Shown here one piece after another: positions 4,442-57,866 of a stretch of 64,000 nucleotides of DNA. The first letter of the stretch is position 1, and every line of letters starts with the position of its first letter. The translations under genes and the position numbers were made by a program. Origin of the DNA: a virus; IMG/VR virus record IMGVR_UViG_3300045988_173726, positions 64,001-128,000 of that record. The stretch is one strand, 5' to 3'. Under the pieces are notes generated by a model that saw only the letters and a list, made by a program, of their open reading frames with translations, did not search any database and was not told the DNA's origin.

Positions 4442-4447
4442 AGTAAT

Positions 4448-4978
4448 ATGAACAGTCGGGTTTATTTCAGTGGCAGAGAGGGAGAAGAGAATCCTACTGT
4501 AGTTGGTTTATCGGTTGGCGTTCGTCCAGAAGTCGAAAAGAAGTTAAGCAAGGTAGACATTGCGTTAGTTATGCAGTCCGATGTAAGTGCGCCAGAGGAT
4601 GTAAAGGTTGCTAAATTAGCGAACTGTGGTAACATGTTTATTCCGCGAGAGATTTCTGTAGGGGTGTTTTCAGAGGATAAGCAGAGCGGGGTGTATACGC
4701 TTGTGCAGTCGGAGAGGGTAAAGTTCACTACTTCTGACAGGGTGCTGGCGTGTTTGAAAGACGGTATTCCGTATACGCATAGTTTATATGTGCCATATCG
4801 AGAGAAACTGCATGTAAGCGTGGTAGCACAGTTGATTATTGCTAGTGAATTTGACTATGACGACTTTAAGTATCACAGATTTAGGAAGGGACTGCCTGTA
4901 GAGCTTAGTTGCCTAGCGGATAGCGGAGAAGAGAGCAACTTTAACTACGAGGAGTGGAAGGATACTGACTGGGACTAA
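4448..4978 (+). CDS. hypothetical protein, paralog of the previous ORF
   Basis: RBS AGGGGGAG. Shares the KVDIAL and GIPYTHSLYV blocks with 3929..4441. Confidence 0.6.
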   Translation: MNSRVYFSGREGEENPTVVGLSVGVRPEVEKKLSKVDIALVMQSDVSAPEDVKVAKLANCGNMFIPREISVGVFSEDKQSGVYTLVQSERVKFTTSDRVLACLKDGIPYTHSLYVPYREKLHVSVVAQLIIASEFDYDDFKYHRFRKGLPVELSCLADSGEESNFNYEEWKDTDWD

Positions 4979-23629: not shown

Positions 23630-23764
23630 ACTCAAGTTTCTCTGTTAGAGAGCAGTATAAACTCAAGTTTCGGCTATATGCGGTTGCGGCTCTGCTTCGG
23701 CGGTAACAGGGGTCTTGTCCCGCAGAAAATCTGTGGAAAGAGAAAGAAAGTTTCGGGGTATACC
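23626..23764 (+). promoter_or_regulatory. three AAGTTTC-core motif copies upstream of the helicase gene
   Basis: GTAAACTCAAGTTTC at 23626. ATAAACTCAAGTTTC at 23657, 31 nt later. GAAAGAGAAAGAAAGTTTCGGGGTATACC at 23736-23764, abutting the ATG. Confidence 0.55.
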
Positions 23765-25918
23765 ATGATAGATAAAAGTAAGTTGATTGCAGACATTGAG
23801 CGTGTAAAAGGAATTAAGCATAGTGTCGAGCAACTGGCTGTTTTGAATAGCACGGGCGGTCTGGTGATTATTGCGGGTGCTGGTTCGGGTAAGACAAGCA
23901 CGATTACGGAGTTAGCCTATATCCGAGCAAAGACAGGGGAATTAGAGCCGTCTAAAACTCTTTGTGCGACTTACAGTAAGAGCGGTGCGCATGAGATGCA
24001 GAGGAAGTTTAAGCGTCTTTGTTCGGAGCTTGGGGACGATTTTGAATTGAGCTTTAAGACTCTGCATAGTTGCTATTATCAAATCCTTCGGTATCTGGGC
24101 TATCCGATAAACATTTGTAGTGAGGGCAGGGCGATGGGGTATCTTCGGCAAGCCCTAAAGGACTGCGGCATCAAGAGTAAGGACAAGGAGCTTGTAGAAT
24201 ATCTCAAAAACTTGTTTTCCTATCAGATAAACAAGGCGATGAGCTATAATGACTTGAGTCAGCACTATCAGTTTGACGAGAAGCGGATTAGTTTAGAGGA
24301 CTATAAGCGCGTAAACACGCAGTATAAGCAGTTAAAGGCGAACGACAGTGTTATGGAGTACGATGACATGCAGTTTATGGTTTACTGCATATTCTGCGGG
24401 GTTTCGGGTGCAGAGTTGACACAGAAAGTGTTGTCGTTCTGTAGGAGTCAGTGGAAGTATTTTATTCTTGACGAATTTCAAGATACAAGCACAATCCAGT
24501 ATAAGATTTTGCGGTGTATGTGCCCCACAGAGAACAGTGCAAATCTAATCGTAATCGGGGACGATGAGCAGGCAATTTACACTTGGAGAGGAACTGACCC
24601 TAAGATTATCCTAGAGGATGTGCAAGTAGACTATCGCTTGAGTTTATATGTTTTGTCCACAAACTATCGTTGCAAGTCAAATATCGTAAAGTTTGCGTTT
24701 AATTCCGTGAAGAATCTAAGCTATCGGCAGAAGAAGGAGCTTAATGCGAACACAGACGGCGGGAGTATTAAGATTCTTTCTAGTGATAACACACTTTACG
24801 GCATAAGCGAAGCGGTCTTAAAGTATGTCAAAGAGCGCATTGCGAGTGGAGAGAAAGCAGACAAAATAGCGGTACTAGTTAGAAATAACTACGAGGCTTG
24901 CGTTCTAAACGCAATGCTTTATGAGAACGGCATCTTTACGGATACGACAAGTGAGAGTATGAGGTTTACGCGGCAGGGGTTGTATGCCGATGTAAAGAGT
25001 GCGTTTGAGCTTCTTAGTAACACTTATAACGGGGACAGGGTTTCTGAGGTGCTTTGGAAGTATGTCGTATTTCTTGGTGCAAACGGAGCGAAGGTCATCG
25101 GGAGCATTATGAACGACTTCGGGGTAAGCCTTACGGAAGCTCTGGGGATTGCGCTAAGTTTAACTGCCTACAGTAGCAAAGTAGGCAAAGTGGGGGAGGA
25201 AATCCCGAGAGGATATAGAGATACGCTTGCGGCTAAGATTTACGCGATGGGTAGAGACACGGTATGGGGTCTGTATCAACTATATTCCCTTCTTTCGGCA
25301 AAGATTAGTAACGAGGACAAGTTTAGTGGTCTTATGGCTATTCTTTACGAGGGAGTTCGGTATATTTACGGAACTCCGGAGCGAGAAAGGCTTTTAAGCG
25401 GGTATTTATCGTATGTTAGGAGTTTATTTGGGCGGTTTAATACGATAGATAGGCTTAAGGAGTATTTTTCAGCGCTATATCAGTACGAGACAGCAGTAGA
25501 TAAGGGGTCAGACTGCATAAATGTCTATACCTATCATGGTGCAAAAGGTCTTGAGTGGGATACGGTAATTTTAATGTGCTGTGACAGCCTAGCCTTGCCG
25601 GAGAGTAGAAGCATTCGGGATATGGTAAACAGGGGTTACGAGTCCAAGGATATAGTGGAGTATATAGACTGCGAGCGGCGGTTATACTATGTTGGATGCA
25701 CGAGAGCTAAAGAGAGGCTTGTGATAGCTTGTGATAACAGTGAGCCGTCCCAGTTTCTTATGGAGTCTTTGGGATTAAACGATGCATACAGGGACAGTAA
25801 CCTTGAGCTTATTGAGGATTCAGACTTTAATTTAGCGGCGAAGGAGAGATTGCCAAGGTATTTGTCAGTCGTTGAAAGTTGGAGGAAGTCGGATGAAGAG
25901 GATAGCGAATCTGTTTGA
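23765..25918 (+). CDS. UvrD/Rep/PcrA-family superfamily-1 DNA helicase
   Basis: IIAGAGSGKTST (motif I), FILDEFQDTS (II), VIGDDEQAIYTWRG (III), LSTNYRC, YTYHGAKGLEWDTVIL (V), YYVGCTRAKERL (VI). I prefer the ATG at 23765; the track start at 23678 adds 29 residues that overlap the motif repeats. Confidence 0.85.
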   Translation: MIDKSKLIADIERVKGIKHSVEQLAVLNSTGGLVIIAGAGSGKTSTITELAYIRAKTGELEPSKTLCATYSKSGAHEMQRKFKRLCSELGDDFELSFKTLHSCYYQILRYLGYPINICSEGRAMGYLRQALKDCGIKSKDKELVEYLKNLFSYQINKAMSYNDLSQHYQFDEKRISLEDYKRVNTQYKQLKANDSVMEYDDMQFMVYCIFCGVSGAELTQKVLSFCRSQWKYFILDEFQDTSTIQYKILRCMCPTENSANLIVIGDDEQAIYTWRGTDPKIILEDVQVDYRLSLYVLSTNYRCKSNIVKFAFNSVKNLSYRQKKELNANTDGGSIKILSSDNTLYGISEAVLKYVKERIASGEKADKIAVLVRNNYEACVLNAMLYENGIFTDTTSESMRFTRQGLYADVKSAFELLSNTYNGDRVSEVLWKYVVFLGANGAKVIGSIMNDFGVSLTEALGIALSLTAYSSKVGKVGEEIPRGYRDTLAAKIYAMGRDTVWGLYQLYSLLSAKISNEDKFSGLMAILYEGVRYIYGTPERERLLSGYLSYVRSLFGRFNTIDRLKEYFSALYQYETAVDKGSDCINVYTYHGAKGLEWDTVILMCCDSLALPESRSIRDMVNRGYESKDIVEYIDCERRLYYVGCTRAKERLVIACDNSEPSQFLMESLGLNDAYRDSNLELIEDSDFNLAAKERLPRYLSVVESWRKSDEEDSESV

Positions 25919-26397: not shown

Positions 26398-26449
26398 GGC
26401 GATTAAGAGGGATTTGGTTTAGGTTTAATGGTTTTTGGAGGAAGCTTCT

Positions 26450-29400
26450 ATGCGGAAGGGCGATAAAAAAGACGAGAAGAAGCCGAAGGGGAAATTATCA
26501 AAGGTAATTCGCAAGTTTTTAATGGCACCCCTAGCGACTTCGGTGGTGGTAGCGACACTGACTTACGGTTTAGCGGTTTTGCCCGTAGCGGTTGTGGTGA
26601 TAAGCTATAACGCGATTTCGGATGACGGAAAGAAGACAGAGGTAGACGATGGCTTAACTGTAAACAAGGTGAGTTGCGGTTGTACGATAATCGGGAGTGG
26701 GCAGGGAGCGGGTGTCACGCAAGAGGTCGATACGACAGCCTCGGCTTTCCCGACATATAACCTAACGGATGCGCAGTTAATAAGGCTTGCGAGGCTTTGT
26801 CATGCGGAGCAGGGTGTAGGCGGCGAAGGGGGAGTGAAGGCAGAGGCAAGTTTAATCGCGAGTAAATACGAGGATTCCGTAAGAAAACAGGGGAAGTCAA
26901 AGGCGGGTGAGCCTTGGGAAACAAAGTCTCTTGACTACTACGCGGATTGGAGCGGCTGGTGGCACGGCACAAAGGGGTGGACAGCGGCTAAGGCGGGTCG
27001 TCCCGACAAGGATTATATGGAAAAAGGTTCTTATACCGCGCAGGAAGTCGAGTGGATGCGGGATGTGTTTGTGAAGGGAGAGCGGACAATTCCTAACTAT
27101 GTCATGGAGCATGATAACATAAACGAAATAACGCGAGCGGTAACGGACGGAGCGGAAACGCCGAAGCGGGCAGACGCATTTGTGCAGGGTAAAACGAAGC
27201 TGTTTAATGTCTATGATTCGCATTATATCTTTTTTGCACAGCCGAGTCCTCGTTCCGACCCGTTTGGCTATATAGAGGCAGATAGAGCGCGTATTGAGCG
27301 TTTGGGTGCGGTTATTAATGTCGGAGATAAGAAGAAAGTTACAACAACGGTAGTAGCGGACGGCAGTAACGGTAGTAACGGAAGTGCGGGCGGTGGCACG
27401 GCAACAGGTTCAACGGGAGCGGTAGTAACAAACGGGGCTGGGATGGCGACAAGCGGTCGTTTAGCGGAGGTGCATCAAAACATCTATCGTATAGCGATGT
27501 CACATATAGGCACAAGGTATGTGTGGGGCGGTAGTTCTTGGACTAGTGGAGCGGACTGTTCTCATGAGACATATATGATACTAAAAGAGGCGGGTGGTTA
27601 TAACAGGGGCTATGTTACTTCGCAAGTATTCCTAACTCTTGGACCAGAAGTAAGTCTAACGGAGTTGCAAGCTGGGGACTGCCTAGTAAGCCCTGGACAT
27701 GTAGCAATTTATATCGGTAATGACATGGTTTTTAGCTCTGGGCAGACGGGTTCGGTAAGTTATGTAAAGCCAGCGTCCGAGTATATCGGGTGGTTTCAGC
27801 GTAAAGGAAAGCGTTTGCAGGCAGTCCGTGTAAACGAAATGATAGCGATAGCGCAGGCAGACGCGGCGGCAGGGAACGGAAGTAGCACGCCGCAAGCGCA
27901 AGCTAGCGGTTTAACGGACGGTTCGTTTAAGGTAGCGGTAGCGAACGAAGTAAGTTTGCGGGGGCAAGCGCCGATAGACGGGACACTGGTCGGTATCACG
28001 GACGGCGGCACGGTAAGCACGAATGCTGGCAGTGTAACGGGGTTAAGCTCTGGAAGTACGGGAGCGCCTATCGGAGCGTCAAGTACAAATAGCGGTAGCC
28101 TAGGTAAGCGAATAGATAACGCAGAGCAGAACAAGTATGGTTTGCCGTTGTACGACAATTACACGTTTAATCCTGATGTTTATGAGCATTTCGACATAGA
28201 TTATTCAAGGTTCTGGAACGGAAGCACGCCAGCGGGGGATGTTGTATACGGTGGTGGAGACTGGAAAGATAACGCATCGAAGAATATTCTTGCATGGGAG
28301 TATAGCGACTCATATTTGAGAAGGCATCCTAATCTGCGAAAGTTTCAGAAGTTTATACCAGACTCGGAAAGTGGAGCATTTGGTTTCCGAGACGGAAGGC
28401 TTGTTATGGCAGTTCCCTATAGGCTGTTGTGTGTAAATTCGGACGAGTCTACAAACTGGTTTGAGACAATACTGCCAACAAAGCAGGCAAACGGCAGAAC
28501 AGGAACTAGTGGAGACAGTCCTGTTATCGAGCCACCGAGTAAGATTAAGCGTATCGAAGGCACAGACGGCATGTATTTTGATGTTGTGTTTGATGACGGG
28601 ACGGTTTTAGGCTGTATGGCTTGTGACGCTATGGGATTGCATACTGGTGTAAATCATTTTGATGACGGCTCATCAACGACATCTTTTGACAAATGGAGTA
28701 AGGGAGCATTTCATACGAGTGTAGTAGGGAGCGTTCCGAATAATACAGAGGCAGAGAGGACGGCGGCTAACCCTAAGATGCGCCTAAATTTCTTTGAGAT
28801 ATTAGGGGCAAAGGATAATAACGCAATGATTTCGCAGTTGAAAGACTTTCTTAGGTCTGGACAGAAGCGAATCAAGTCAGTAAGGGTGTATCCTACGCTT
28901 TTATTAAAGAATGGAGAGCAGTTCGCATCCGCAGGCACGAACAGCTCATTTGGTTTAACAGGTGGCACAGCGGGACGTGCGGTTGCGGGAGAGGATACGA
29001 CAGCACAGACAGGGAACAGTAGCGGCAATACGGGCTTATATGCAAATTGCACTTGTAGCGAGTGCCATTGCCACGATAACGAGAGTAGTGGAGTGAGCGG
29101 CGGACCAGCGTCCTCAATCGTGGCGAATACGGGTAAACTAACGGAGACAGCGGGTATGCCGCAGGGTGTTTACTGGAATAAGGCAACAAATAAGCAGTAT
29201 ACGCCGCAGGAAGTGCTTGATATGTTTAGGACAAACTTCCCGAATATATCAAGTCAGTATATACCTTGCTTTGGGTTACGTGATTTTACAGATTTAGCAG
29301 TTCCAGCAGATAAGCTTCCAGAGAAGTTTAAGGACACGCGGGGAGTACTCGGGTATGCGCAGGGAAATCAGTCTTGGAAAGGGTTAAAGTGGATAGTAGC

Positions 29401-30085
29401 GGGGCTTCCGTATCGGGATAGCTTTGCAAATGACGCAACTTTTGCGCAGAGTTCGTGCGGAGTTCATGCGCAGAGTATTATCATAAGCAGTCTGTTGCAT
29501 CGGTATATCACGCCACCAGAGGTTGTAATGGCGGCAATCATGAGTGATAAGCTTGGCGGTGATGAGCATGGAGCATATAGCACGGGTCGAGTTTACGCAG
29601 CGATGGGATTTAGCCGTATTTATAACAGCTTTAAGTTTAACGGGGAGAATCTGTTTAATGTCGAGTTTTCGGAGACTTTATCGCGGGATAAGCTTGACAG
29701 TGTGTTAAACGCGGGTGGTATGGTTTCGGTGTGTGTGCATAGGTATTGGACGAGAGCGGGTCATTTCGTGGTAATCGCGACAAGAGACAGCGATAACAAG
29801 TATTACATCGTAGATAGCAACGCGAGTCACTTAGTAAAAGACACTGTTCCTTACGATAAGGGATATACGTTTGACGAGATAGCCCAGCTTGGCGGGGTAA
29901 TCAATCAAGTAAACTATGTTACGCCGACAGAGGCATATAACCAGTATTTGCAGAGCGGAAGTAACAGCACGGCGGTAAGTACGAGTAGCGGCGCGGGTAC
30001 GAGCGAGAGCGCTACGGGAGCTACAAGTAATAGCTCGGAAAGCGCGAACAGCGAAAGTACGACTGTGGAAGAGGAGGATGAGTGA
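26450..30085 (+). CDS. membrane-anchored multi-domain cell-wall hydrolase (NlpC/P60 plus a C-terminal papain/C39-like Cys peptidase)
   Basis: ATG 26450 follows GGAGGA, and there is an N-terminal TM segment. NlpC/P60 motifs: YVWGGSSWTSGADCSH...GDCLVSPGHVAIYIG. C-terminal: QSSCGVHAQSIIISSLL...AGHFVVIATRD..YYIVDSN. The N-terminal RLARLCHAEQG stretch might be SleB/CwlJ-like, but that is weak. Confidence 0.7.
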   Translation: MRKGDKKDEKKPKGKLSKVIRKFLMAPLATSVVVATLTYGLAVLPVAVVVISYNAISDDGKKTEVDDGLTVNKVSCGCTIIGSGQGAGVTQEVDTTASAFPTYNLTDAQLIRLARLCHAEQGVGGEGGVKAEASLIASKYEDSVRKQGKSKAGEPWETKSLDYYADWSGWWHGTKGWTAAKAGRPDKDYMEKGSYTAQEVEWMRDVFVKGERTIPNYVMEHDNINEITRAVTDGAETPKRADAFVQGKTKLFNVYDSHYIFFAQPSPRSDPFGYIEADRARIERLGAVINVGDKKKVTTTVVADGSNGSNGSAGGGTATGSTGAVVTNGAGMATSGRLAEVHQNIYRIAMSHIGTRYVWGGSSWTSGADCSHETYMILKEAGGYNRGYVTSQVFLTLGPEVSLTELQAGDCLVSPGHVAIYIGNDMVFSSGQTGSVSYVKPASEYIGWFQRKGKRLQAVRVNEMIAIAQADAAAGNGSSTPQAQASGLTDGSFKVAVANEVSLRGQAPIDGTLVGITDGGTVSTNAGSVTGLSSGSTGAPIGASSTNSGSLGKRIDNAEQNKYGLPLYDNYTFNPDVYEHFDIDYSRFWNGSTPAGDVVYGGGDWKDNASKNILAWEYSDSYLRRHPNLRKFQKFIPDSESGAFGFRDGRLVMAVPYRLLCVNSDESTNWFETILPTKQANGRTGTSGDSPVIEPPSKIKRIEGTDGMYFDVVFDDGTVLGCMACDAMGLHTGVNHFDDGSSTTSFDKWSKGAFHTSVVGSVPNNTEAERTAANPKMRLNFFEILGAKDNNAMISQLKDFLRSGQKRIKSVRVYPTLLLKNGEQFASAGTNSSFGLTGGTAGRAVAGEDTTAQTGNSSGNTGLYANCTCSECHCHDNESSGVSGGPASSIVANTGKLTETAGMPQGVYWNKATNKQYTPQEVLDMFRTNFPNISSQYIPCFGLRDFTDLAVPADKLPEKFKDTRGVLGYAQGNQSWKGLKWIVAGLPYRDSFANDATFAQSSCGVHAQSIIISSLLHRYITPPEVVMAAIMSDKLGGDEHGAYSTGRVYAAMGFSRIYNSFKFNGENLFNVEFSETLSRDKLDSVLNAGGMVSVCVHRYWTRAGHFVVIATRDSDNKYYIVDSNASHLVKDTVPYDKGYTFDEIAQLGGVINQVNYVTPTEAYNQYLQSGSNSTAVSTSSGAGTSESATGATSNSSESANSESTTVEEEDE

Positions 30086-31146: not shown

Positions 31147-31202
31147 GCCAAGTACACAGCACAGTTTAACAGGTATAAAGATTTAAGGAGAGGTAGGGTA
31201 AA

Positions 31203-31480
31203 CTAGCAGTTTCCAACAATGTAGAAGAAACAGGAATTATTCTCGACTTTATACATTTTATTTAGTAAGCAGTCCTATACAGATGTATTCAACGCAAGAC
31301 AGTTGAGCATCTCCCTTTAGGGCTAAGTTTATCAGAAGCCTTGACAACAATTTTCATTGTGTGGCTACGGTTGAAATGAGATGAGTTAGGGTGGAATAGG
31401 TTAACCGTAAGACCTTGAGTTGCAAAACTCTAAAATTGAGCTAGAGTATGGATTTTTCAAGTTTCGTATTTCTAGTTACG
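31203..31480 (+). mobile_element. ORF-less mini copy (left-end block fused to right-end block) of the TnpB-like element
   Basis: 31203-31268 matches the left-end blocks at 31511 and 36309 (CAGTTTCCAACAATG..GGAATTATT..). 31269-31480 matches the post-stop blocks of both full copies and ends at the same CTAGTTACGG. Confidence 0.7.
31269..31480 (+). ncRNA. orphan copy of the omega-RNA-like structured block
   Basis: About 212 nt, homologous to 32966-33173 and 37748-37963. Carries the invariant TCAAC-GCAAGACA-GTTGA hairpin. Confidence 0.45.
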
Positions 31481-31618
31481 GTATCAGTCGAAGGACAAGT
31501 AGGAAGAGTAATCGACAGTTTCTAACAATGCGGAAGAAGCAGGAATTATTTCTCGATTTTCTATGTTGTTTTAGTTAGCTAAGGTTATTTCATTAGGGGC
31601 GCAGGGTGGTGAGGTGTA

Positions 31619-32950
31619 ATGCAGAAACTAAAGTTGACTACAGTAGCACAGCTACATGAGGGGAGTAACCGATGTTTAATTGAATATATGGAATCTTCTC
31701 GTAGCGATTACGGAAAAGCATTGCGAGAGACTTTCTATGCAATCAAGCGAGGAGGAGTAAATAAGTCAAAGTACAACACATATCTCCAGTATAAATACGG
31801 AATTTCTAGTCGGACTGCAAATTCTATCATTTATGACGCACAAGGACGCTTTAATGCTCTTAAGGAGTTAAAAGGGCATGAAAGGAAGCAGTTGGAGAGA
31901 AAAATTAAGTATATTGAGAGTGTAGTTATTCCAAAGCTAGTTGAGAAAAGGAATCAGAACTCAGCTAAAATTCAAGACGGAGCATATGTGTTGCTGGGTC
32001 AACAAAGGAATCTAAGGTTAAGGGTAGTTGCGAAGAAGTCAAGGTTAAACAGGCTGAAACAGAAGCTAAAGGCACTAGAGTACCAATTAAAATCTGGAAT
32101 GTTAAAGCTTTGTTTCGGTACAAAACGGCTACTTAAACAAGACCATGATAAGTTTGTTGAACAGCGAGACAGCCAAATGACTCTCATAGGAGCTAAAGAG
32201 AAACCAGCGTGTAATCCAGTTTTACAGTTGACTTATAATCGAAGGAGTAATCAGTTTTTGATTCGGTTGCGGAAAGATTTCGGAGGGTATAAGTCAGCAA
32301 GAGGTGAGGATAGATATGCTTATGGAAAGGTTTATTTCAATCTTCATAAGACACAGCTTGTATCAATTTTGAGGTATAAGACTAGTCCTCTATCTTATAG
32401 AATAATCAAGATGAATGGCAGATATTACCTATATTGTATATTTGAGTTTCAAGTAAGTGCTGGCGATATAGTTACTCGTTCTTCTTACGGAACGATAGGG
32501 CTGGACTTTAACAAAGGTTTTGTGACCTTATCAGAGACGAATCAATACGGTCATCTAGTAAAAACACAGTTTATGCCATATCGGTTTAAGTCTGGAAACA
32601 AGACAAATACAGACCTACAAGCAATAGCAAATCATGTAGCTAAACTAGCATTGGTAACAGGAAAAGATGTTTGTATAGAGAATCTTGATTTTAGAGCAAA
32701 GAAAGCTAAGACAGAATCAAAGATAGGAAAGAAATACAACGAGATGCTTCATTCGTTAGCCTATCGGGAGTTTAGTGACGCGATGAAAAGTGTAGCATAT
32801 AGAAACAGAGTTAGATTAAATAAAGTAAATCCAGCGTGGACATCATGGTTAGCAGATAGGATTTATTGTAAGTCTATGAAGTTGAATATACATACTGGAG
32901 CTTCATATGTAATAGCAAGGCGTGGACAGGGTTATAAAGACGCTGTGTAA
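31619..32950 (+). CDS. TnpB/IS605-OrfB-like protein lacking the zinc ribbon and the RuvC-III Asp
   Basis: IGLDFNKG (RuvC-I), VCIENLDF (RuvC-II) and VNPAWTSW (the V.P.YTSQ block). These are followed directly by LADRIYCKSMKLNIHTGASYVIARRG, with no CxxC..CxxC and no D.NAA. Confidence 0.75.
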   Translation: MQKLKLTTVAQLHEGSNRCLIEYMESSRSDYGKALRETFYAIKRGGVNKSKYNTYLQYKYGISSRTANSIIYDAQGRFNALKELKGHERKQLERKIKYIESVVIPKLVEKRNQNSAKIQDGAYVLLGQQRNLRLRVVAKKSRLNRLKQKLKALEYQLKSGMLKLCFGTKRLLKQDHDKFVEQRDSQMTLIGAKEKPACNPVLQLTYNRRSNQFLIRLRKDFGGYKSARGEDRYAYGKVYFNLHKTQLVSILRYKTSPLSYRIIKMNGRYYLYCIFEFQVSAGDIVTRSSYGTIGLDFNKGFVTLSETNQYGHLVKTQFMPYRFKSGNKTNTDLQAIANHVAKLALVTGKDVCIENLDFRAKKAKTESKIGKKYNEMLHSLAYREFSDAMKSVAYRNRVRLNKVNPAWTSWLADRIYCKSMKLNIHTGASYVIARRGQGYKDAV

Positions 32951-33173
32951 GGAGCATCTAACAATCAATCCTATACAGATGTATTCAACGCAAGACAGTT
33001 GAGCATTTCCCTGTAGGATTAAGTTTACTAGAAACTCTGATAACAATTCTCATTGTGTGGCTACGGTCGAAATGGAATGAGTCTGGATGGAATAGGTTAG
33101 CCGTAAGACCTTGGGTTGGAAAACTCTAAAATTGAGCTAGAAATGTGGATTTCTTAGCTATTTTCTAGTTACG
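32951..33173 (+). ncRNA. omega-RNA-like conserved block downstream of TnpB-like copy 1
   Basis: Conserved in three copies and ends abruptly at CTAGTTACGG. Hairpins show compensatory differences between copies. Confidence 0.5.
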
Positions 33174-33346
33174 GCTAACGCCTGCGGAGCGAGAAGAGGT
33201 TTTACGGGGCTTAGAAGCATAAAGCCCCGTAGACGCACGAGACGGCGTTTTACGGGCGGTTAGAGGTTTAAGCCTAAGGAATAGCCTAGGGGCAGTTAGG
33301 CGGCTTGGAGAGGCGTGTAGCGCGTCAGAGAGGGATGAGGGACGAT

Positions 33347-33649
33347 ATGGGAGAGCAGAATAGAAATCCGCTTGAGGGGTTACTTGAGGTACGGCGTGAG
33401 GTAAGAAAGCTTTGTCCAGAGCTTTTTCCGAAAGAGGAGCGAGTAGCCTACGGGGTAGTAGGCGAGACAGGAGAGCCTTCGGTGGCGCTTCAAAAGTTTA
33501 ATAAGCTATTGGCGGCACAGACGGGCAGTAAGACAGGAAAGAAGCGAAAGACAGCGGTAAAAGTCCCAGCAAAGCAAGGAAAGGTCGGAGACGGCGAATT
33601 TACGGGAACGAGTTTATTTGAGGCGATGAAACGAGGGGGAGTGCTATGA
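33347..33649 (+). CDS. small basic hypothetical protein
   Basis: ATG 33347 follows GAGGGA. The stop overlaps the next ATG (ATGA). Confidence 0.5.
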   Translation: MGEQNRNPLEGLLEVRREVRKLCPELFPKEERVAYGVVGETGEPSVALQKFNKLLAAQTGSKTGKKRKTAVKVPAKQGKVGDGEFTGTSLFEAMKRGGVL

Positions 33650-34065
33650 GTAAGCGCGTGTATGCGAAAGCCGAGACGGTACGAGTTCTAGATAGGTGGG
33701 ACGAAGAAGCGGAAGCTTCACTACAACTGCTTGCGTCCCCGAAGGCAATCGTAAGTCGTGTGAGGACAAATCCGAGAGGGTATTTCAAGCGTGTTAAGTA
33801 TGTTGTTCGACACGAAGGGAATGAATTAACTGAGGTTATAGTGAATTGTGAGGATTTTGATGCAGAGTCACCTTTCTTTGTCGGGACAGAGGAGATGATG
33901 TTTGTGTTTTCAACGCGGGGCAGTATACCTTGTACTTCTTTTACCGTCAAAATTAGCTTTGCAACAGGTTCTATCAAGATATTCGGAACTATAGAAGCGA
34001 TAGGATACTTGACAGACTGGCTTCATGTTCCATTTACAGATTTTAAGCTTGTGAGATACAGGTAA
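33646..34065 (+). CDS. family-A paralog A1
   Basis: RVYAKA, VSRVRTNPRG, IKIFG and the C-terminal DWLHVPFTDFKL. RBS GGGGGAG. Confidence 0.65.
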   Translation: MSKRVYAKAETVRVLDRWDEEAEASLQLLASPKAIVSRVRTNPRGYFKRVKYVVRHEGNELTEVIVNCEDFDAESPFFVGTEEMMFVFSTRGSIPCTSFTVKISFATGSIKIFGTIEAIGYLTDWLHVPFTDFKLVRYR

Positions 34066-34083
34066 GAGAATGGGGGTTTTGTT

Positions 34084-34494
34084 GTGAAAGTATATGCGAA
34101 AGCAGTGAAATTGAGAGTACCAGACAGGTGTGACGGGGATATACATGTCACGCTTCAAATGGTTAAGCCTCTAAATGCGGTTTTAAGTAGAATAATGACA
34201 ACGCCGAACGGACGGTTAGTTCGTTCAGAGTATGTTGTTCGGAACGAGCAGGGAGTAACAACTCTTAGAGCAAATTTTGGTGAGTTTTGCGCAGAATCAC
34301 CTGTACCTGACGGCACAGAGCGGATAAGGCTTAGATTTTTAGTACGAGGTGGAGCAATACACACCTCAATTCGTGTCAATATCAATCTTTTGACTGGCTC
34401 TATAGATATATTTGGAAAGTATGGGACAGTCGCAGACTTGACTGACTGGCTTCATGTGTCGCCTAGCGATTTTAAGATTGTGAGAGCCAAGTAA
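34084..34494 (+). CDS. family-A paralog A2
   Basis: KVYAKA, LSRIMTTPNG, IDIFGK, DWLHVSPSDFKI. Confidence 0.65.
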   Translation: MKVYAKAVKLRVPDRCDGDIHVTLQMVKPLNAVLSRIMTTPNGRLVRSEYVVRNEQGVTTLRANFGEFCAESPVPDGTERIRLRFLVRGGAIHTSIRVNINLLTGSIDIFGKYGTVADLTDWLHVSPSDFKIVRAK

Positions 34495-34516
34495 GAAAAG
34501 TTAGCGGGGGAGGTTT

Positions 34517-34933
34517 ATGAGTGGTCGAGTTTACGCGAGAGCAGGGAAGATGCGGGTCAGTCCGTTTCGAGATAGCGACAATGATACTGTACGGGCTACA
34601 CTTCAACGGGTAATATATCCGAGGTCATTTCTAAGTCGGTTAAGAACAAATCCGAAGGCGGAGTTTGTTAGCGCTGAATGCGTCATTCGTAATAGAGCAG
34701 AGAGTATACCGCTACGGTTTGAGGATTTGGTAGCTTTTCATTTCCCCATAGGAACGGTAGGTGTGACTTTAAGGTTTAAGCCGCGCTATAGTTTCGGAGA
34801 CAGTCTACTCTCTATTAAGACTAACCTTATCACAGACGATATAGAGGATATAGAGATAGTCGGGAAAAGAGAAGCGGTTGTAGACTTGTTAGAGTGGTTA
34901 CATGTGCCGCTGTCAGAGTTTCGATTGAAGTAG
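34517..34933 (+). CDS. family-A paralog A3
   Basis: RVYARA, LSRLRTNPKA, IEIVGK, EWLHVPLSEFRL. Confidence 0.65.
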   Translation: MSGRVYARAGKMRVSPFRDSDNDTVRATLQRVIYPRSFLSRLRTNPKAEFVSAECVIRNRAESIPLRFEDLVAFHFPIGTVGVTLRFKPRYSFGDSLLSIKTNLITDDIEDIEIVGKREAVVDLLEWLHVPLSEFRLK

Positions 34934-34946
34934 TTTGGGGTGGTCT

Positions 34947-35402
34947 ATGAGTAAGAAGAGTAAGAAACAGTACGCGAGAGCTGAAGTAATAAGTCCATTT
35001 CTGGGGAGCGGTGGCGATGTGATAAAAGCTTGTCTTAGTATAGTTGTTTCTCCTATGGCATTTGTACGTCGGGTAATAGCGAATAAAATTGGTAAGCTAG
35101 CGGGTGTTGAGTACATTGCTTCTCGTGAAGCTGGCTATCTTCCGATACTGGCAGAAGATTTCCTAGCCAATGCGGATTTACCTAGTAACACGAAATGTGT
35201 AAGGCTTAAGTTCATGTTGCATAGTAGTTTATCCAGCAGTCTATCGGGTGGTATATTCTTAGTATTTGTTAGCTTCCGAGTTGGTCGTGTAGAAATACTC
35301 GGAAAGATGAATACAGTAGTAGCCCTAGTCGATTGGCTTAATGTTCCGTTTTCGGAATTTGAATTTATCCTTCCGAGTTCAGATTCATTGTGTTTAGGTT
35401 AG
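34947..35402 (+). CDS. family-A paralog A4
   Basis: QYARAE, VRRVIANKIG, VEILGK, DWLNVPFSEFEF. I prefer the ATG at 34947. Confidence 0.6.
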   Translation: MSKKSKKQYARAEVISPFLGSGGDVIKACLSIVVSPMAFVRRVIANKIGKLAGVEYIASREAGYLPILAEDFLANADLPSNTKCVRLKFMLHSSLSSSLSGGIFLVFVSFRVGRVEILGKMNTVVALVDWLNVPFSEFEFILPSSDSLCLG

Positions 35403-35415
35403 GGGGTTTGTGGAT

Positions 35416-35838
35416 ATGAGTGGCAGGAAGTATTTGGATGTGGGCCATTTGAAGATAAGTAGTTCTGGTGGTATGCGAGGTCTATTGCATGTAACTTGCA
35501 AGACTAGCGCTTCTCTAAAGGCACTTGCGAGTAGAGTTTGCACGAATCCGCATAGTAGATTAACGGAAGCCTATTATTTAGTGGCGGGAAGTAGTGGGCG
35601 GCTTAATATCGAGGAGCTAAGTGTGTTGGACTTAAAAGCCTTTCGTTTACCCGAGGTGGCTGTTGGGCTTAGACTTGATTTTTCATCAAAAGGTAAGCTA
35701 GAAAGCAGGATAGGCGGCGAGGAGTTTTCAGTTTGGATTAACTCTGTGGAGAGTAAGCTGGAGATAATTGGCAAGAGAAACGCCGTTATAGAGTTGTGCG
35801 CGTGGCTTAATGCGCCGCTTTCAGATTTAATTAAGTAA
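35416..35838 (+). CDS. family-A paralog A5
   Basis: ASRVCTNPHS, LEIIGKRNAV, AWLNAPLSDL. Confidence 0.6.
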   Translation: MSGRKYLDVGHLKISSSGGMRGLLHVTCKTSASLKALASRVCTNPHSRLTEAYYLVAGSSGRLNIEELSVLDLKAFRLPEVAVGLRLDFSSKGKLESRIGGEEFSVWINSVESKLEIIGKRNAVIELCAWLNAPLSDLIK

Positions 35839-35861
35839 TTCTGTGTTTAGGAGGTGAGATT

Positions 35862-36257
35862 GTGGGCGAGAGACGGTATCTGGACGATAGTTCCGTAAAG
35901 ATAGCGTGGGTTGGAGATAAATTAGACGCAAAGTTTAGAGTTGTCTCGTCATTAAAGGCGGTTGCGAGCCGTGTTAGGACAAACCCAAAAGGTAAGTTAG
36001 TGGAGGCTTCATGCGTAGTAGCTAGTGGCGGCAGTGTAAGATATGTTATGCTAAGGGTAGCGGATTTAGTTGCCTTCCGTTTACCTGTTGGGACTACTAG
36101 CGTTTTGCTTATTTTTGAGTCGAAAGGTAGTAGGCGCGGGGAAACATTTTCCATTATAATTGACTTAGCGGGGAAGTCGTTAGAGATAATTGGTAACAGA
36201 AACGAAGTAGTAGATTTGTGTTCGTGGCTTCATGAGCCGATTTGGGGGAATATATGA
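35862..36257 (+). CDS. family-A paralog A6
   Basis: GTG start 8 nt after AGGAGG. ASRVRTNPKG, LEIIGNRNEV, SWLHEPIWGNI. Confidence 0.6.
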   Translation: MGERRYLDDSSVKIAWVGDKLDAKFRVVSSLKAVASRVRTNPKGKLVEASCVVASGGSVRYVMLRVADLVAFRLPVGTTSVLLIFESKGSRRGETFSIIIDLAGKSLEIIGNRNEVVDLCSWLHEPIWGNI

Positions 36258-36310
36258 CAGAACGAAGAAGCAGTGACAAGAGTTCCGTAAAGATAGCGCG
36301 GATAAATTAG
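36254..36310 (+). pseudogene. 5' remnant (18 codons) of a family-A paralog, truncated by TnpB-like element copy 2
   Basis: ATGA overlap with the A6 stop. MTERRSSDKSSVKIARIN resembles the A6 N-terminus MGERRYLDDSSVKIAW. Its TAG stop lies at the element's left boundary. Confidence 0.6.
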
Positions 36311-36400
36311 CCGTTTCCAACGATGCAGAGAAGCGGGAATTACGTCTCAATTTTCTATGTTTTAGTTAAGGTTTTCATTAGGGGCATAGGGTGAATTGTA

Positions 36401-37732
36401 ATGCAGAAGCTAAAGTTGACTATAGTAACACAGCTACACGAGGGAAGTAACCGAGGTTTAATTGAATATATGGAAGCTTCCCGTAGGGATTATGGGAAAG
36501 CAATGCGAGAGACTTTCTATGCAATTAAGCGTGGTGGTTTTGATAAGTCAAAGTACAACACATGCCTTCAACATAGACATGGAATTGTTAGTCGAACTGC
36601 AAATGCTATCATTTCTGACGCTCAAGGAAGATTTTATGCTCTTAAGGCGCTGAAAGAGTGTGAGAGGAAGCAGTTAGAGCGAAAGATTAAATATCTTGAG
36701 AGTACAGTTATTCCTAAGTTAGTTGAGCAAAGGAATCAGAATTCAACTAAGCTTCAAGACGGAGTATTTGTTTCGTTGATTCAACAAAGGAATCTAAGGT
36801 TAAGGGTAGTTTCAAAGAAGTCTAAACTAAATAGGTTGAAGCAGAAGCTTGAAGTGTTGAAGTATCAACTAGAAATAGGAAAGTTAAAGCTTTGTTTTGG
36901 AACGAAAAGGTTGTTAAAGCAAGACCAAGAGAAGTTTATTGAGCAAAGGGATAGTCAGATGACTTTCATAGGAGCTAAGGGGGAGCTAGCATGTAATCAC
37001 AACTTGCAGTTGCGCTACAATCGAAGAAGTAATCAGTTTTTGGTTCGATTGCGTAAAGATTTCGGAGGGTATAAGTTAGTTAAAGGCGAAGATAGGTATG
37101 TTTACGGCAAAGTTTATTTCAATCATCACAAGGGACAGCTTGTTTCGATTCTGAGGTCTAAAACTAGTCCTTTATCTTATAGGATAGTCAAAAGGAAAGG
37201 TAGGTATTATTTACACTGTATATTTGAGTTTCAAGTAGGGAACAGCGGTATAGTTACTCGTTCTTCTTACGGAACGGTAGGATTAGACTTTAACAAAGGG
37301 TTTGTGACCTTATCAGAGACGAATCAGTACGGACATTTAGTTAAAACAGAGTTTATGCCTTATTGTTTCGAGTCTGGAAGTAAAACAAAAACAGACTTAC
37401 AGGATGTAGCTAATCATGTAGTTAAACTAGCTTTACGAACAGGTAAGGATATTTGTATAGAGAATCTTGATTTTAGAAGAACAAAAGCAAAGACAGAAAC
37501 AAAGATAGGAAAGAAATACAATGCTATGCTTCATTCTTTAGCCTATCGAGAGTTCAGTGACGCGATGGGGAGTGTATGTTATAGGAACAGTGTTGGATTG
37601 CACAAAGTAAATCCAGCGTGGACATCATGGTTTGCAGAGAGGATTTATTGTAAACCTATGAAGTTGAACATACATACTGGGGCTTCGTATGTAATAGCAA
37701 GGCGTGGGCAAGGGTATAAGGATGCTATATAA
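36401..37732 (+). CDS. TnpB/IS605-OrfB-like protein lacking the zinc ribbon and the RuvC-III Asp (copy 2)
   Basis: Same length and motifs as copy 1: VGLDFNKG, ICIENLDF, VNPAWTSW, NIHTGASYVIARRG. I counted 20 differences in the first 101 residues. Confidence 0.75.
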   Translation: MQKLKLTIVTQLHEGSNRGLIEYMEASRRDYGKAMRETFYAIKRGGFDKSKYNTCLQHRHGIVSRTANAIISDAQGRFYALKALKECERKQLERKIKYLESTVIPKLVEQRNQNSTKLQDGVFVSLIQQRNLRLRVVSKKSKLNRLKQKLEVLKYQLEIGKLKLCFGTKRLLKQDQEKFIEQRDSQMTFIGAKGELACNHNLQLRYNRRSNQFLVRLRKDFGGYKLVKGEDRYVYGKVYFNHHKGQLVSILRSKTSPLSYRIVKRKGRYYLHCIFEFQVGNSGIVTRSSYGTVGLDFNKGFVTLSETNQYGHLVKTEFMPYCFESGSKTKTDLQDVANHVVKLALRTGKDICIENLDFRRTKAKTETKIGKKYNAMLHSLAYREFSDAMGSVCYRNSVGLHKVNPAWTSWFAERIYCKPMKLNIHTGASYVIARRGQGYKDAI

Positions 37733-37963
37733 ATAGCATTTAACAATCAGTCCTACACAGATGTATCAACGCAAGACAGTTGAGCATTTCCCTGTAGGAC
37801 AAAGTTTAATTAGAAGCTCTGGCAATAATTCTCATTGTGTGGCTCTACGGTCGAAATGGGATGAGTTAGGGTGGAATAGGTTAACCGTAAGACCTTGAGT
37901 TGAAAAACTCTAAAATTGAGCTGGGAATATTGATTTATTAAATTTCGTATTTTCTAGTTACGG
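37733..37963 (+). ncRNA. omega-RNA-like conserved block downstream of TnpB-like copy 2
   Basis: Homologous to 32951-33173 and 31269-31480, with the same terminal CTAGTTACGG. Confidence 0.5.
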
Positions 37964-37967
37964 TTCA

Positions 37968-38000
37968 TGGCTTTATGTGCCGATTTGGAGGAGTGTGTGA
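37968..38000 (+). pseudogene. 3' remnant (10 codons) of a family-A paralog
   Basis: TGG CTT TAT GTG CCG ATT TGG AGG AGT GTG TGA reads WLYVPIWRSV*, which is the family-A C-terminal signature. Its TGA overlaps the ATG of the next paralog. Confidence 0.55.
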
Positions 38001-38671
38001 TGGAAAAAAGAAGAAGCAGTGGAAAGATTAAAGTTAAAAGGGACGCTAATGGTCGTTTAGTTCAGACTTTTGACGCCCAAGTTAAAGTTAAGAGGGACGC
38101 TAATGGTGATTTAGTGCAGATTGGCGGCGATAAAGAAACCGTGCGGGTTAAGGCATCTAGTAGGCACGGTATAGGCACTAGGAATTTGGCAGGGGCAGGT
38201 TTGGGTGTTCATCATCTTGTTAAGGACGCGAGCGGTCGTTTAATTGTGTGTGATAATATTGGTAGTGTTCTTAGGGGTAATCTTGGGGGTAAAAAGATAC
38301 ATTCTATAGATATAGACGGTCGGGTTCAGTTATGGAGAGGTAACGGAGTTTGTAGTGTATCATTTGGGATACTGATGGAGCCAAGAGAGTTTTTGGAGGG
38401 ATTGGTACAGTATCCGAATTGCACGAGAGCTGAAGTAGCTCTGATGTATCCGAGTTTTAAGTCTACAAAGTTTACTGCTAATTATAGCTTAGATAAGCTG
38501 ATTAGAAATGGGCTTTCAGAGGACACTCGTGGTATGATTCTTTATTTTAGTCGCAATAGGGAAGTAAACTATAACCTTACAGCGATGGTAAGCTTTATGG
38601 ATAGGATACTGACGCTTACAGGGGATAATGATTATGTGGCGGCGTTGGTTCATTGGCTTAGTGCGAGGTGA
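38000..38671 (+). CDS. family-A-related paralog A7 with an N-terminal repeat extension
   Basis: ATG 38000 follows GGAGGAG. N-terminus MEKRRSSGK. Repeats VKVKRDANGRLVQ, VKVKRDANGDLVQ and VKDASGRLIV. C-terminus LTLTGDNDYVAALVHWLSAR. Confidence 0.55.
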   Translation: MEKRRSSGKIKVKRDANGRLVQTFDAQVKVKRDANGDLVQIGGDKETVRVKASSRHGIGTRNLAGAGLGVHHLVKDASGRLIVCDNIGSVLRGNLGGKKIHSIDIDGRVQLWRGNGVCSVSFGILMEPREFLEGLVQYPNCTRAEVALMYPSFKSTKFTANYSLDKLIRNGLSEDTRGMILYFSRNREVNYNLTAMVSFMDRILTLTGDNDYVAALVHWLSAR

Positions 38672-39372: not shown

Positions 39373-39803
39373 GAGTGGCGAAAAGAAAGCGTCTTGAAGT
39401 TATTAAGCGTTATATTAGTCCAGACCTGTGTTATGCAGAGGTAACTTGTGAGCTAGGCTGTAAGCCTTCTGCAATTTGTAGCTGGGCGCTTAAGACCTCT
39501 GGGGTTGCAGAGTATGTGGAAATAATGGCAGAGCATAAATTAGGCTTGTGGGGGCGAGTAACACAGTCGGTTCTTGAGCGTGATGTTTTAATAGGGGGCA
39601 GAGAGTTCATGTTCTCTTTTGGTACGAGACCTGATGACACTTTTCTTACCCTTTTTCTTGACTGTAGGTATAGGCAAGTGCGTATTTGTGGAATACCGGA
39701 GTTGATTTTCTCGTTTATAAAGGCATTTAATGGCGCGATAGTGATAAAAAGCCTTTTATATGAGTATGCAAAGGCTGTCTTACAGCACGAAGAGGTGGAA
39801 TGA
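39360..39803 (+). CDS. diverged family-A-like paralog A10
   Basis: QVRICGIPELIFSFIKAFN resembles LEIIGKRNAVIELCAWLN. An alternative start is the GTG at 39375. Confidence 0.45.
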   Translation: MRGVRVAKRKRLEVIKRYISPDLCYAEVTCELGCKPSAICSWALKTSGVAEYVEIMAEHKLGLWGRVTQSVLERDVLIGGREFMFSFGTRPDDTFLTLFLDCRYRQVRICGIPELIFSFIKAFNGAIVIKSLLYEYAKAVLQHEEVE

Positions 39804-40189
39804 TGAATGGCAGAGTTTTAATTAGCGAAGAGCCGCTAGAGGTGACGCCTATTAGTTGGGATACCCGCGCTATCTTTCGTACTGTGGCTACACCGAGGAA
39901 GATATTAGAGAGGATTCTAAGCATGCCGCAGAGCGATAGTTATAGTGCAAACTTGATTTTGGCAGACGGTTCATTGAATCCGATAAGCGAAGCGGCTCTT
40001 AGGTCTTTGAAGTTTCCGAGAGGCACAGTTGGAGTAGAGTTTTCCCATTCTTATGTGATTAGTGGTGGTTGGGTGACAATTTGGATAGCGATTAAATTTC
40101 GTGAAAAGACGCTTACTTTGCAGGGTGATGCGTGTGGTGTGAGTTCGGCAGTAACTTGGCTTTTAACAACAGAAGAGACGCGGGAGTAG
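39800..40189 (+). CDS. family-A paralog A11
   Basis: ATGATG start overlaps the upstream stop. Pattern LERILSMPQS, KFPRGTVGVEF, LTLQGDACGVSSAVTWLL. Confidence 0.55.
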   Translation: MMNGRVLISEEPLEVTPISWDTRAIFRTVATPRKILERILSMPQSDSYSANLILADGSLNPISEAALRSLKFPRGTVGVEFSHSYVISGGWVTIWIAIKFREKTLTLQGDACGVSSAVTWLLTTEETRE

Positions 40190-57676: not shown

Positions 57677-57866
57677 ATACCGTCACTACCGTGGGTTACA
57701 CGGAAAGTTAAGCTTGTGGACTGTTCTATCAAATGGGAGTAGTCTTTATATCTCGATACAAAAAAAACAAAACCAGACAGGATGAAGCAAGAAGAATTTC
57801 TAAAATATTTTATTAGAAAGGTCATGAAATATACGTTTGGGTATATTTTGTGTAACAGGCAGCAAG

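Follow-up and report, generated by a model that had tools for sequence, protein, structure and literature searches.

Two TnpB-like genes of a jumbo phage with a candidate D-E-H RuvC centre are probably selfish RNA-guided nucleases rather than dead repressors

Introduction

In Cas12 and TnpB enzymes, the TNB/zinc-finger insert aids substrate loading. Cas12m is a type V effector that binds DNA without cutting it. To our knowledge, no TnpB with the residues D-E-H has been characterized biochemically, and we know of no demonstration that any such TnpB cleaves DNA.

The TnpB branch RIIIr-4 is defined by the replacement of the RuvC-III Asp by His and by the absence of the C4 zinc finger (Altae-Tran et al. 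2023, PNAS, PMC10691335). In the sections of that paper that treat the branch, RIIIr-4 is over-represented in viruses, catalytic activity is inferred by the authors, and the highlighted sub-branch is archaeal and linked to RHH/MazE. TldRs are described there as proteins with lost or truncated catalytic residues. In the part of Nety et al. that covers the TAM depletion screen, one RIIIr-4 orthologue showed a clear omega-RNA processing site and no activity in the screen. This negative result was set aside as a proof of RIIIr-4 inactivity, because most of the canonical orthologues listed there were also negative. The rules and TAMs of IS607 elements (GG ends, G-rich DNA) have been summarized (PMC13565253).

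Here, we analyzed a window of 64,000 nucleotides (positions 64,001 to 128,000 of the IMG/VR record IMGVR_UViG_3300045988_173726). A sequence-only reading of this window had proposed that two of its genes encode nuclease-dead, TldR-like DNA binders. Since each of these genes, together with its guide RNA, forms part of a small mobile element of a jumbo phage, they probably encode working selfish RNA-guided nucleases and not dead repressors.

Results

Sequence and predicted fold of the two proteins

Two tnpB-like genes were found on the plus strand, copy 1 at 31619..32950 and copy 2 at 36401..37732. Both encode 443 amino acids, and their gap-free alignment shows 81% identity with 86 differences, 20 of which are within the first 101 residues. 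The length, the divergence of about 20% and the count of 20 reported by the sequence-only reading agree with these values. Its TnpB hallmark motifs are also present in both proteins, GLDFNKG at position 294, CIENLDF at 352 and VNPAWTSW at 403, and HTGASYVIARRG is located at 425. The tail behind TSW contains a single Cys (C417), the only one beyond residue 400, and its only acidic residues are D413, which is not conserved, and D441. The CxxC..CxxC ribbon is absent from both ORFs. In the Pfam search, no domain match was obtained for either ORF, including OrfB_IS605 and TNB/zinc-ribbon (Cas12f1-like_TNB); both of these domains were detected in the canonical TnpB at 56489-57676 of the same window. 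Thus, the zinc ribbon is lost, as had been claimed, and so is the RuvC-III Asp, whose position is occupied in our alignment by His425.

A PHROGs search gave no match for the ORFs, nor did a PDB search with a single sequence. The sole PDB sequence match was UnCas12m4a, spanning RuvC-II to TSK. The match to NCBIfam guided_TnpB was partial (residues 327-409 only, E 1.2e-8). When the family profile was compared with a canonical TnpB profile by hhalign, a probability of 97.6% was obtained (E 2.8e-12, 165 columns), and D296 was paired with the RuvC-I Asp, E354 with the RuvC-II Glu and TSW with TSQ. This comparison is usable only with a small TnpB alignment as the target; when the one canonical TnpB of the window was used instead, the probability was 6.6%, which is too weak for use.

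The AF2 model (pLDDT 90.4, pTM 0.77) is predicted to contain WED/REC plus a RuvC fold, with a lone helix (408-420) where the zinc-finger/TNB insert would be. The best Foldseek matches of the model were Cas12f (E 2e-8, TM up to 0.49) and Cas12m2 (E 5e-6), and CasX, Cas-lambda, Fanzor2 and ISFba1 TnpB were further top matches. Bona fide RuvC resolvases gave TM values of 0.62-0.64, normalized to the target. The profile match and the model together bear out the proposal that the ORFs are TnpB homologues.

The family profile was also compared with a published RIIIr-4 member from Nocardiopsis dassonvillei. This match (99.2% probability, E 1.2e-19, 245 columns) was stronger than that to canonical TnpB. 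Judged by the definition of the branch and by this profile match to one member, the two ORFs are members of the already published branch RIIIr-4.

Conservation of the candidate active site

Conservation was analyzed among 108 diverse representatives, the most distant at about 25% identity. D296 was found in 107, E354 in all 108 and H425 in 107 of them. In the same representatives, N298, T408/S409, A428, I432 and R434 are conserved, and the C-terminus of the relatives is conserved up to the last residues. In the AF2 model, H425 is at the start of the last helix, after beta-5, and by eye a gap-free alignment of NIHTGASYVIARRG with HADxNAAxNIAxRG of the TnpBs compared was possible. Since hhalign on short C-terminal fragments did not place RuvC-III statistically, the His/Asp register was set by the motif, which matches without gaps, by the secondary structure and by what has been published on the branch. 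From the motif register and the secondary structure, H425 would be placed beside D296 and E354. D296-E354-H425 is thus a candidate RuvC centre, and the fallback of the sequence-only reading, an active site completed by a different residue, is to be preferred.

The principal claim of that reading was different. According to it, the proteins are candidate nuclease-dead RNA-guided DNA binders of the TldR kind, with which the phage would repress chosen promoters. The missing RuvC-III Asp and zinc ribbon, the negative TAM depletion screen of the RIIIr-4 orthologue and Cas12m as the best PDB sequence match are all compatible with this. However, the three candidate catalytic residues are nearly invariant, whereas in TldRs such residues are lost or truncated.

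Purifying selection was observed on both copies, in agreement with the earlier claim of selection on the protein: dN/dS is 0.145 between the two window copies and about 0.14 in each third of the protein, and the median of 36 pairs is 0.135. Full-length relatives number in the thousands. These values bear on whether the genes are decaying relics, that is, functionless remnants of old insertions. We consider this very improbable, although the window has no tnpA, the two copies are 18% apart in DNA and ORF-deleted derivatives exist (31199-31481 and a second case in L079; relatives are numbered with the prefix L). Both ORFs are intact and of full length, dN/dS is low in all three thirds, full-length relatives are abundant, and the RNA described below is more conserved than the coding sequence.

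Layout of the units and guide RNA scaffold

The repeat extends beyond the ORF. The region 31518-33174 matches 36313-37963 with 82% DNA identity and includes about 100 nt 5' of the ORF and about 215 nt of noncoding DNA 3' of it. The left-end/5' untranslated block of element 1 is at 31508..31618 (plus strand, TAATCGACAGTTTCTAACAATG...), and the corresponding block of element 2 is at 36303..36400 (plus strand). In 12 close copies, conservation begins about 110 nt before the ATG, and the sequence beyond is unrelated. A third copy of the downstream block, without an ORF, was found at 31260-31486. It is part of an ORF-less derivative element (31199..31481, plus strand), in which a left-end block (about 31199-31270) resembling those 5' of both ORFs is fused directly to a complete omega-RNA scaffold. 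No match was found when GenBank phage records were searched with the element by blastn.

The three noncoding blocks match the Rfam family RF03065 (IS605-orfB-I). The omega-RNA scaffold of element 1 (32968..33174, plus strand, ending ...TTCTAGTTACGG) scored 179.1 bits, that of element 2 (37750..37963, plus strand) 202.8 bits and that of the ORF-less unit (31272-31485) 189.3 bits. All three matches are full length (model positions 1-214 of 214), at about twice the gathering score of 94.2 bits. The RNA motif goes back to Weinberg 2017, although the main text of that paper contains no mention of it. By nhmmer, an RF03065-type RNA was detected just 3' of the stop codon in all 39 IMG/VR loci examined, which have at least 51% identity and in which the full ORF and the downstream flank are present. 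The RNA was also detected 3' of the partial ORFs in L047, L078 and L079. In three members at 46-58% identity, the Rfam match reached or exceeded the gathering score.

The RNA of each element ends with ...UUACGG, exactly where the similarity between copies ceases, and conservation falls sharply past ACGG in 12 of the 12 close copies. Thus, the boundary between scaffold and guide was placed there. This defines three putative guides on the plus strand. Guide g1 is the flank of the ORF-less element (31482..31507, TATCAGTCGAAGGACAAGT...); at the empty sites of L080 and L083, the same flank sequence, TATCAGTCGAAGGACAAGC, follows the left flank without interruption. Guide g2 is the right flank of element 1 (33175..33194, CTAACGCCTGCGGAGCGAGA) and matches the empty sites of L080, L081 and L083. 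Guide g3 of element 2 (37964..37983, TTCATGGCTTTATGTGCCGA) is in the remnant 3' end of a paralog gene (SWLYVPIWRSV, followed by the stop). No second-site target of g1 or g2 was found within the 64-kb window, and the only second-site match of g3 there is its own duplicated flank.

This duplicate, at 36221..36300 (plus strand), is a diverged copy of the right flank of element 2 (37964-38045) with about 80% identity, and related phages hold one copy. Flank duplication was considered as a general insertion signature and rejected, with element 2 (z 9.3), the ORF-less unit and L018 as the only outliers.

Empty sites and relation to IS607

Each of the three units is missing from the corresponding site in six syntenic phages, whose backbone identity is 87-89%, and related phages carry copies at other sites. 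The right junction coincides with the end of the scaffold: homology with related phages resumes at 33176 for element 1, and homology to L081 resumes at 37963 for element 2. The flanks of the 12 close copies are mutually unrelated. These results show that the units are mobile and are not fixed beside a target or a partner gene. In elements 1 and 2, the left and right junctions miss a single point of the empty site, one of them having lost about 200 bp and the other carrying a duplication of about 80 bp. Thus, at least these insertions were not simple cut-and-paste events. A single common TAM was not derivable from the five empty sites, and TG instead of GG precedes the right junction in two of them.

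In many bacterial (Firmicutes) and phage relatives, a TnpA with MerR-HTH and Resolvase domains (IS607-type serine recombinase) is encoded directly 5' of tnpB. These relatives include L025, L037, L039, L041, L044, L045, L050, L059, L060, L063, L065 and many bacterial loci. No tnpA was detected in the window by tblastn. Therefore, the copies in the window are derivatives and not autonomous members. The GG end (...TTACGG) of the three window copies recurs in ten close copies from IMG/VR and even in members at 30% identity. On the left side, the flanking DNA is G-rich and GAGGG-like, with GGG at -6 to -4 in 10-13 of 15 flanks and TGAGG in L060 and L063.

These observations also bear on promoter repression by a nuclease-dead binder. 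Such a protein would be expected beside a fixed partner gene, but the close copies have unrelated flanks and the units are missing from syntenic sites. The guides are plain flanking DNA, g1 and g2 have no second match in the window, IS607-type ends are kept, and TnpA is kept in relatives. Together with the RIIIr-4 match and a His that is as invariant as the Asp and the Glu, this makes a TldR-like function improbable, and the principal claim of the sequence-only reading is not supported.

Discussion

We propose, with a probability of roughly 0.7, that the units are tnpB-only, non-autonomous derivatives of the IS607 family in a jumbo phage genome of about 260 kb, and that they encode an RNA-guided D-E-H nuclease acting in homing or retention. 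Each unit with a gene consists of a left-end/5' block (about 110 nt), an RIIIr-4 TnpB of 443 aa, in which the zinc-finger/TNB insert would be cut down to one helix, and a 214-nt omega-RNA scaffold (RF03065). The last bases of the scaffold (...UUACGG) would be the right end of the element. If expressed, transcription beyond this end would bring about 16-20 nt of flanking DNA into the RNA as the guide. The complex of TnpB and RNA would then find the uninterrupted site, a G-rich TAM with a guide match, in the genome of a sister phage or of a co-infecting phage. This site would be cut by the D296-E354-H425 centre, and recombinational repair would copy the element into the cut site. Transfer to new GG sites would require the serine recombinase TnpA in trans, possibly from autonomous relatives in related jumbo phages or in Firmicutes. 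Several features speak against the proposal: the TNB/zinc-finger insert is missing, the best PDB sequence match is Cas12m, the window has no tnpA, the RIIIr-4 orthologue of Nety et al. was negative in the TAM screen, two of the five right junctions come after TG, and the junctions of elements 1 and 2 miss a single point of the empty site.

The first two of these features are what would be expected of a protein similar to Cas12m or Cas12c, in which D-E-H is kept solely for omega-RNA processing from the tnpB transcript while DNA is bound and left uncut. Such binding could, for example, block the replication or transcription of competitors, or mark sites for TnpA. RNA processing explains the conserved catalytic residues equally well; the orthologue examined by Nety et al. 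processed its omega-RNA and lacked TAM-screen activity; the domain lost here is the substrate-loading one, and the resemblance to Cas12m extends from sequence to fold. However, most of the canonical clades known to be active were negative in the same screen, in the part of that study that reports it. The presence/absence pattern, the GG ends and the G-rich left flanks fit ordinary IS607 elements that cut the empty site. Furthermore, since the RNA begins 3' of the stop codon here, its release from the mRNA may take less processing. On balance, we regard binding without cutting as unlikely, and the D-E-H nuclease remains our preferred reading.

A further idea concerns the chemistry and its use. 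The invariant D-E-H and the lost zinc-finger/TNB may mean that these proteins work differently from canonical TnpB, as a nickase, a processor of their own RNA or a binder. Jumbo phages with several copies and guide-only units might then turn them on co-infecting relatives, or employ them in regulation, and not for plain transposon retention. This idea is doubtful, and we put it forward only tentatively.

The analysis corrects a tempting misreading: a TnpB without the Asp and the zinc ribbon need not be a dead enzyme. The D-E-H, ribbon-less layout is the defining trait of a large and conserved branch that has already been published, and the units described here are ordinary members of it. This phage lineage offers compact 443-aa proteins, a defined 214-nt scaffold, clear boundaries between scaffold and guide, and natural empty targets. 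With such sites and boundaries, tests of activity and TAM are easy to design. The units are also a clear natural case of IS607 derivatives reduced to tnpB or to the guide alone, present in some related jumbo phages and absent from others, and this polymorphism fits the idea of spread by homing during co-infection.

With the TldRs associated with fliC, oppF and csrA, the ORFs share a TnpB origin, compact size, an altered RuvC-III region and a 3' guide RNA, and some TldRs are phage-encoded, as here. In contrast, TldRs are immobile, bound to a partner gene and guided to a promoter elsewhere, and their catalytic residues are lost or truncated, whereas the genes here are mobile, the guide is the local flank, and D, E and His are invariant. 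Cas12f and Cas12m are the best structural matches of the ORFs, and Cas12m also resembles them in sequence; unlike these effectors, the units have no CRISPR array and a fixed guide, and the ORFs have no zinc-finger/TNB domain and the triad D-E-H rather than D-E-D. The GG terminus is common to the units and to IS607-family insertion sequences, which combine a serine recombinase TnpA, TnpB and omega-RNA. The G-rich left flanks would also fit the IS607 rules, with TG instead of GG before two of the five right junctions. Relatives encode TnpA directly 5' of tnpB, but the three window units have no tnpA, and the TnpB has His for Asp and no zinc finger. The three noncoding blocks are plain members of RF03065, without any difference, whereas the RNA of the canonical TnpB in the same window (56489-57793) is of the RAGATH-18 type. 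With RIIIr-4, the ORFs share the conserved RuvC-III His and the absence of the C4 zinc finger, and the tail of the N. dassonvillei member (...TSRW..(20 aa)..SRHDAASIAVGRRAQG) has the same layout. The pairing with RF03065 seen here is not stated in the sections of PMC10691335 on the branch, and in contrast to the archaeal, RHH/MazE-linked sub-branch highlighted in those sections, the copies described here occur in jumbo phages and Firmicutes and are linked to a serine recombinase.

Conservation of the paired tnpB-like genes

The two tnpB-like genes (31619-32950 and 36401-37732, both on the + strand) encode proteins that align without gaps at 81% identity, with 86 differences in total. The sequence-only reading had described a pair of 443-aa ORFs that differ at 20 of the first 101 residues, and both counts were reproduced. 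The motifs also lie where it had placed them (GLDFNKG at 294, CIENLDF at 352, VNPAWTSW at 403 and HTGASYVIARRG at 425). Its claim that the zinc ribbon and the RuvC-III Asp are missing was borne out: the tail past TSW has only 34 residues with a single Cys (C417), and the RuvC-III position has no conserved acidic residue. No domain was detected in the Pfam search of the two ORFs, and the match to NCBIfam guided_TnpB was limited to residues 327-409 (E ~1e-8), ending at the expected start of the zinc finger. The dN/dS between the copies was 0.145 (0.10-0.16 per protein third), and the median of 36 pairs was 0.135. The genes are clearly under purifying selection, and these values rule out decay.

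The canonical TnpB at 56489-57676 (395 aa; 56489-57793 together with its RNA) gave HTH_OrfB_IS605, OrfB_IS605 and the Cas12f1-like_TNB zinc ribbon in Pfam and carries the DRDRNAAINL motif. No tnpA was found beside it, and a RAGATH-18 RNA (RF03064, 69.2 bits, full) starts 37 nt after it. Since these features stand alongside the His-type elements, one phage genome contains two distinct TnpB/omega-RNA systems.

Protein family and RuvC residues

The family has more than 4,400 matches in a 90% clustered database. The best 120 of them share ~80% identity and are nearly all 443-447 aa; many lie on contigs of ~240-275 kb, and the few NCBI-named ones are labelled Caudoviricetes. An exhaustive search (E up to 1e-3) gave 1,443 clusters (50% identity). 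When 108 diverse full-length members were aligned, D296 and H425 were each conserved in 107 and E354 in all 108; N298, T408/S409, A428, I432 and R434 were also near-invariant. Two further alignments reproduced this conservation.

Profile-profile comparison with seven canonical TnpBs (97.6% probability, E 2.8e-12) matched D296 to the RuvC-I Asp, E354 to the RuvC-II Glu and TSW to TSQ, and stopped at the zinc finger. Together with the partial guided_TnpB match, this upheld the proposed TnpB homology. In the AlphaFold2 model (pLDDT 90.4, pTM 0.77), the strand order is RNase H-like, D296 and E354 lie at the ends of strands 287-298 and 349-354, respectively, one helix (408-420) replaces the zinc-finger insert, and H425 starts the last helix. 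Foldseek retrieved Cas12f (E 2e-8, TM up to 0.49), Cas12m2, CasX, Cas-lambda, Fanzor2 and ISFba1 TnpB, and also RuvC resolvases (target-normalised TM 0.62-0.64). By eye, NIHTGASYVIARRG matches the canonical HADxNAAxNIAxRG without gaps, so His425 falls on the catalytic Asp; statistical alignment of the C-terminal piece, which is too short, gave no placement of RuvC-III.

Because all three residues are invariant across very deep divergence, we infer that the D-E-H centre is active. A centre limited to RNA processing, in a complex that binds DNA without cutting it like Cas12m or Cas12c, would agree with the missing TNB domain and the likeness to Cas12m; we consider this unlikely.

Omega-RNA and element ends

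Self-comparison showed that 31518-33174 is repeated at 36313-37963 with 82% DNA identity; thus the repeat exceeds the ORF. A third copy of the downstream noncoding block (~215 nt) is present at 31260-31486 without an ORF. Two short direct repeats are unrelated to the elements (13187-13235/13509-13557, 49 nt, and 38024-38066/38079-38120, 43 nt; both 88%). All three noncoding blocks are full-length Rfam RF03065 (IS605-orfB-I RNA; 202.8, 189.3 and 179.1 bits; gathering score 94.2). They are near-identical through ...TTCTAGTTACGG and then unrelated, and conservation also drops sharply after the RNA end in 12 close copies at different genomic sites. Such an end of similarity defines the scaffold/guide boundary in TnpB omega-RNAs (PMC10278001). 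Upstream conservation starts ~110 nt 5' of the ATG, at ATCAGCAGTTTC; most copies have a G-rich GGGGTAA-like stretch before this point.

Variants were seen at other loci. In L009 and L010, the block 5' of the ORF (~2930-2990) holds the first ~40 nt of the scaffold (gtcctgtatagatgtatcaacgcaagacggtc), which suggests recombination of guide-only with full elements. ORF deletion took another form in L079 (3001-3315), which retains only the last 24 codons of a tnpB-like gene before a complete RF03065-like RNA. The right-end terminal hairpin is doubled in two 30%-identity members (L060 and L063, both ~4440-4520; ...CTTCACGG AATAGAAC...TTTCTTTACGG). In L029 (4335-7314), 13 tRNA genes lie immediately 3' of the RF03065 RNA, and the array includes a RAGATH-18 RNA (4789-4867) whose adjoining TnpB gene seems absent. 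L046 has a tmRNA gene (6555-6927).

Bacterial relatives were seen in Firmicutes, among them Lachnospiraceae, Megasphaera hominis, Romboutsia lituseburensis and Erysipelotrichaceae. Many of these relatives, as well as eleven jumbo-phage loci, encode a ~200-aa protein that combines MerR-type HTH and Resolvase domains immediately 5' of the gene, an arrangement shared with IS607; this protein was not found in the window. The right end ...TTACGG is conserved down to members at 30% identity, whose left flank is TGAGG. IS607 elements end in GG and insert at or downstream of GG within G-rich DNA; AGGAG and GAGGG are examples of their TAMs (PMC13565253). The relatives' recombinase arrangement, the GG ends and the G-rich flank indicate that the window copies probably derive from an IS607-family element, as tnpB-only forms plus one guide-only form.

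Empty sites in related phages

Six related phage contigs are 87-89% identical to the backbone around the elements. In all six, window 20.1-31.19 kb joins directly onto 33176 onward; the ORF-less unit (31199-31481) and element 1 (the first gene with its flanking blocks) are missing, and homology restarts 1-2 nt past the scaffold end. Element 2, its counterpart with the second gene, is missing in five of the six, with homology restarting at 37963. L082 has a copy at another site, upstream of the position equivalent to window 21402, and in L084 a copy lies inside a paralog array, before the equivalent of 40825. The putative guides to the right of the ORF-less unit and elements 1 and 2 match the empty sites of these relatives with a few mismatches. 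The units are mobile elements and are not regulators fixed in place.

Some insertions are complex. At the empty site of element 1, the relatives have ~245 bp, a small ORF included, that are absent from the window, and ~80 bp are duplicated (80% identity) at the flanks of element 2; this duplication was no general feature among the family copies examined. In L080 (11118-11366; likewise L081 and L083), the ~245-bp site corresponds to window 31197-33175, and only the first codons of its small ORF (MAYQSKDKQEEF...) are left in the window, as the flank that separates the ORF-less unit from element 1.

The paralog array (33622-36257, 37958-38671 and 39764-40189) comprises at least eight tandem genes of ~130-150 aa with a terminal (D/S)WLHVP-like motif. 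Its gene content varies across related phages, two genes tested gave no PHROG match, and the element 2 and L084 insertions lie at 3' ends of its genes. A 1216-aa protein (26435-30085) matches phage tail-protein PHROG families at residues ~300-470; this tail-like protein, a RecJ-like exonuclease (42772-44361) and a helicase (23678-25918) support a phage origin of the window.

The sequence-only reading had proposed a nuclease-dead, RNA-guided binder like TldR. This did not hold up, and we regard it as very improbable. TldRs are defined by lost catalytic residues, immobility and guides directed to a promoter elsewhere. Here D, E and H are near-invariant in the 108 members, the units are absent at matching sites of related phages and found elsewhere, and no guide aimed at a distant promoter was seen in the 64-kb window.

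The standard TnpB-element model is the best-supported reading of the window units. The TnpB and omega-RNA complex, with the flank as guide, would find and cut the uninterrupted site, and recombination after the cut would restore or spread the element; in phage, the targets would be co-infecting relatives. The natural empty sites of relatives would be a straightforward test bed for DNA cutting by D-E-H TnpBs.

Comparison with clade RIIIr-4

RIIIr-4 is a major TnpB clade defined by Altae-Tran et al. 2023 (PMC10691335). Its members have a conserved His in place of the RuvC-III Asp and no C4 zinc finger; the clade is one of the rearranged branches found specifically in viruses, and its authors judge it probably catalytically active from the conserved rearrangement. 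Nety et al. 2023 list one RIIIr-4 representative, from Nocardiopsis dassonvillei, which showed a clear omega-RNA processing site and was inactive in the TAM screen. This negative says little, because most canonical orthologues were also inactive in the table part covered. Our family profile matched the first 399 residues of the Nocardiopsis protein (99.2% probability, E 1.2e-19, 245 columns), and its C-terminus, taken from the RNA column of their table, reads ...DPAYTSRW-(20 aa, no Cys)-SRHDAASIAVGRRAQG, a layout shared with the window proteins. We assign the window family to RIIIr-4. The protein branch, the His-for-Asp change, the missing zinc finger, the virus bias and the RNA motif are already catalogued.
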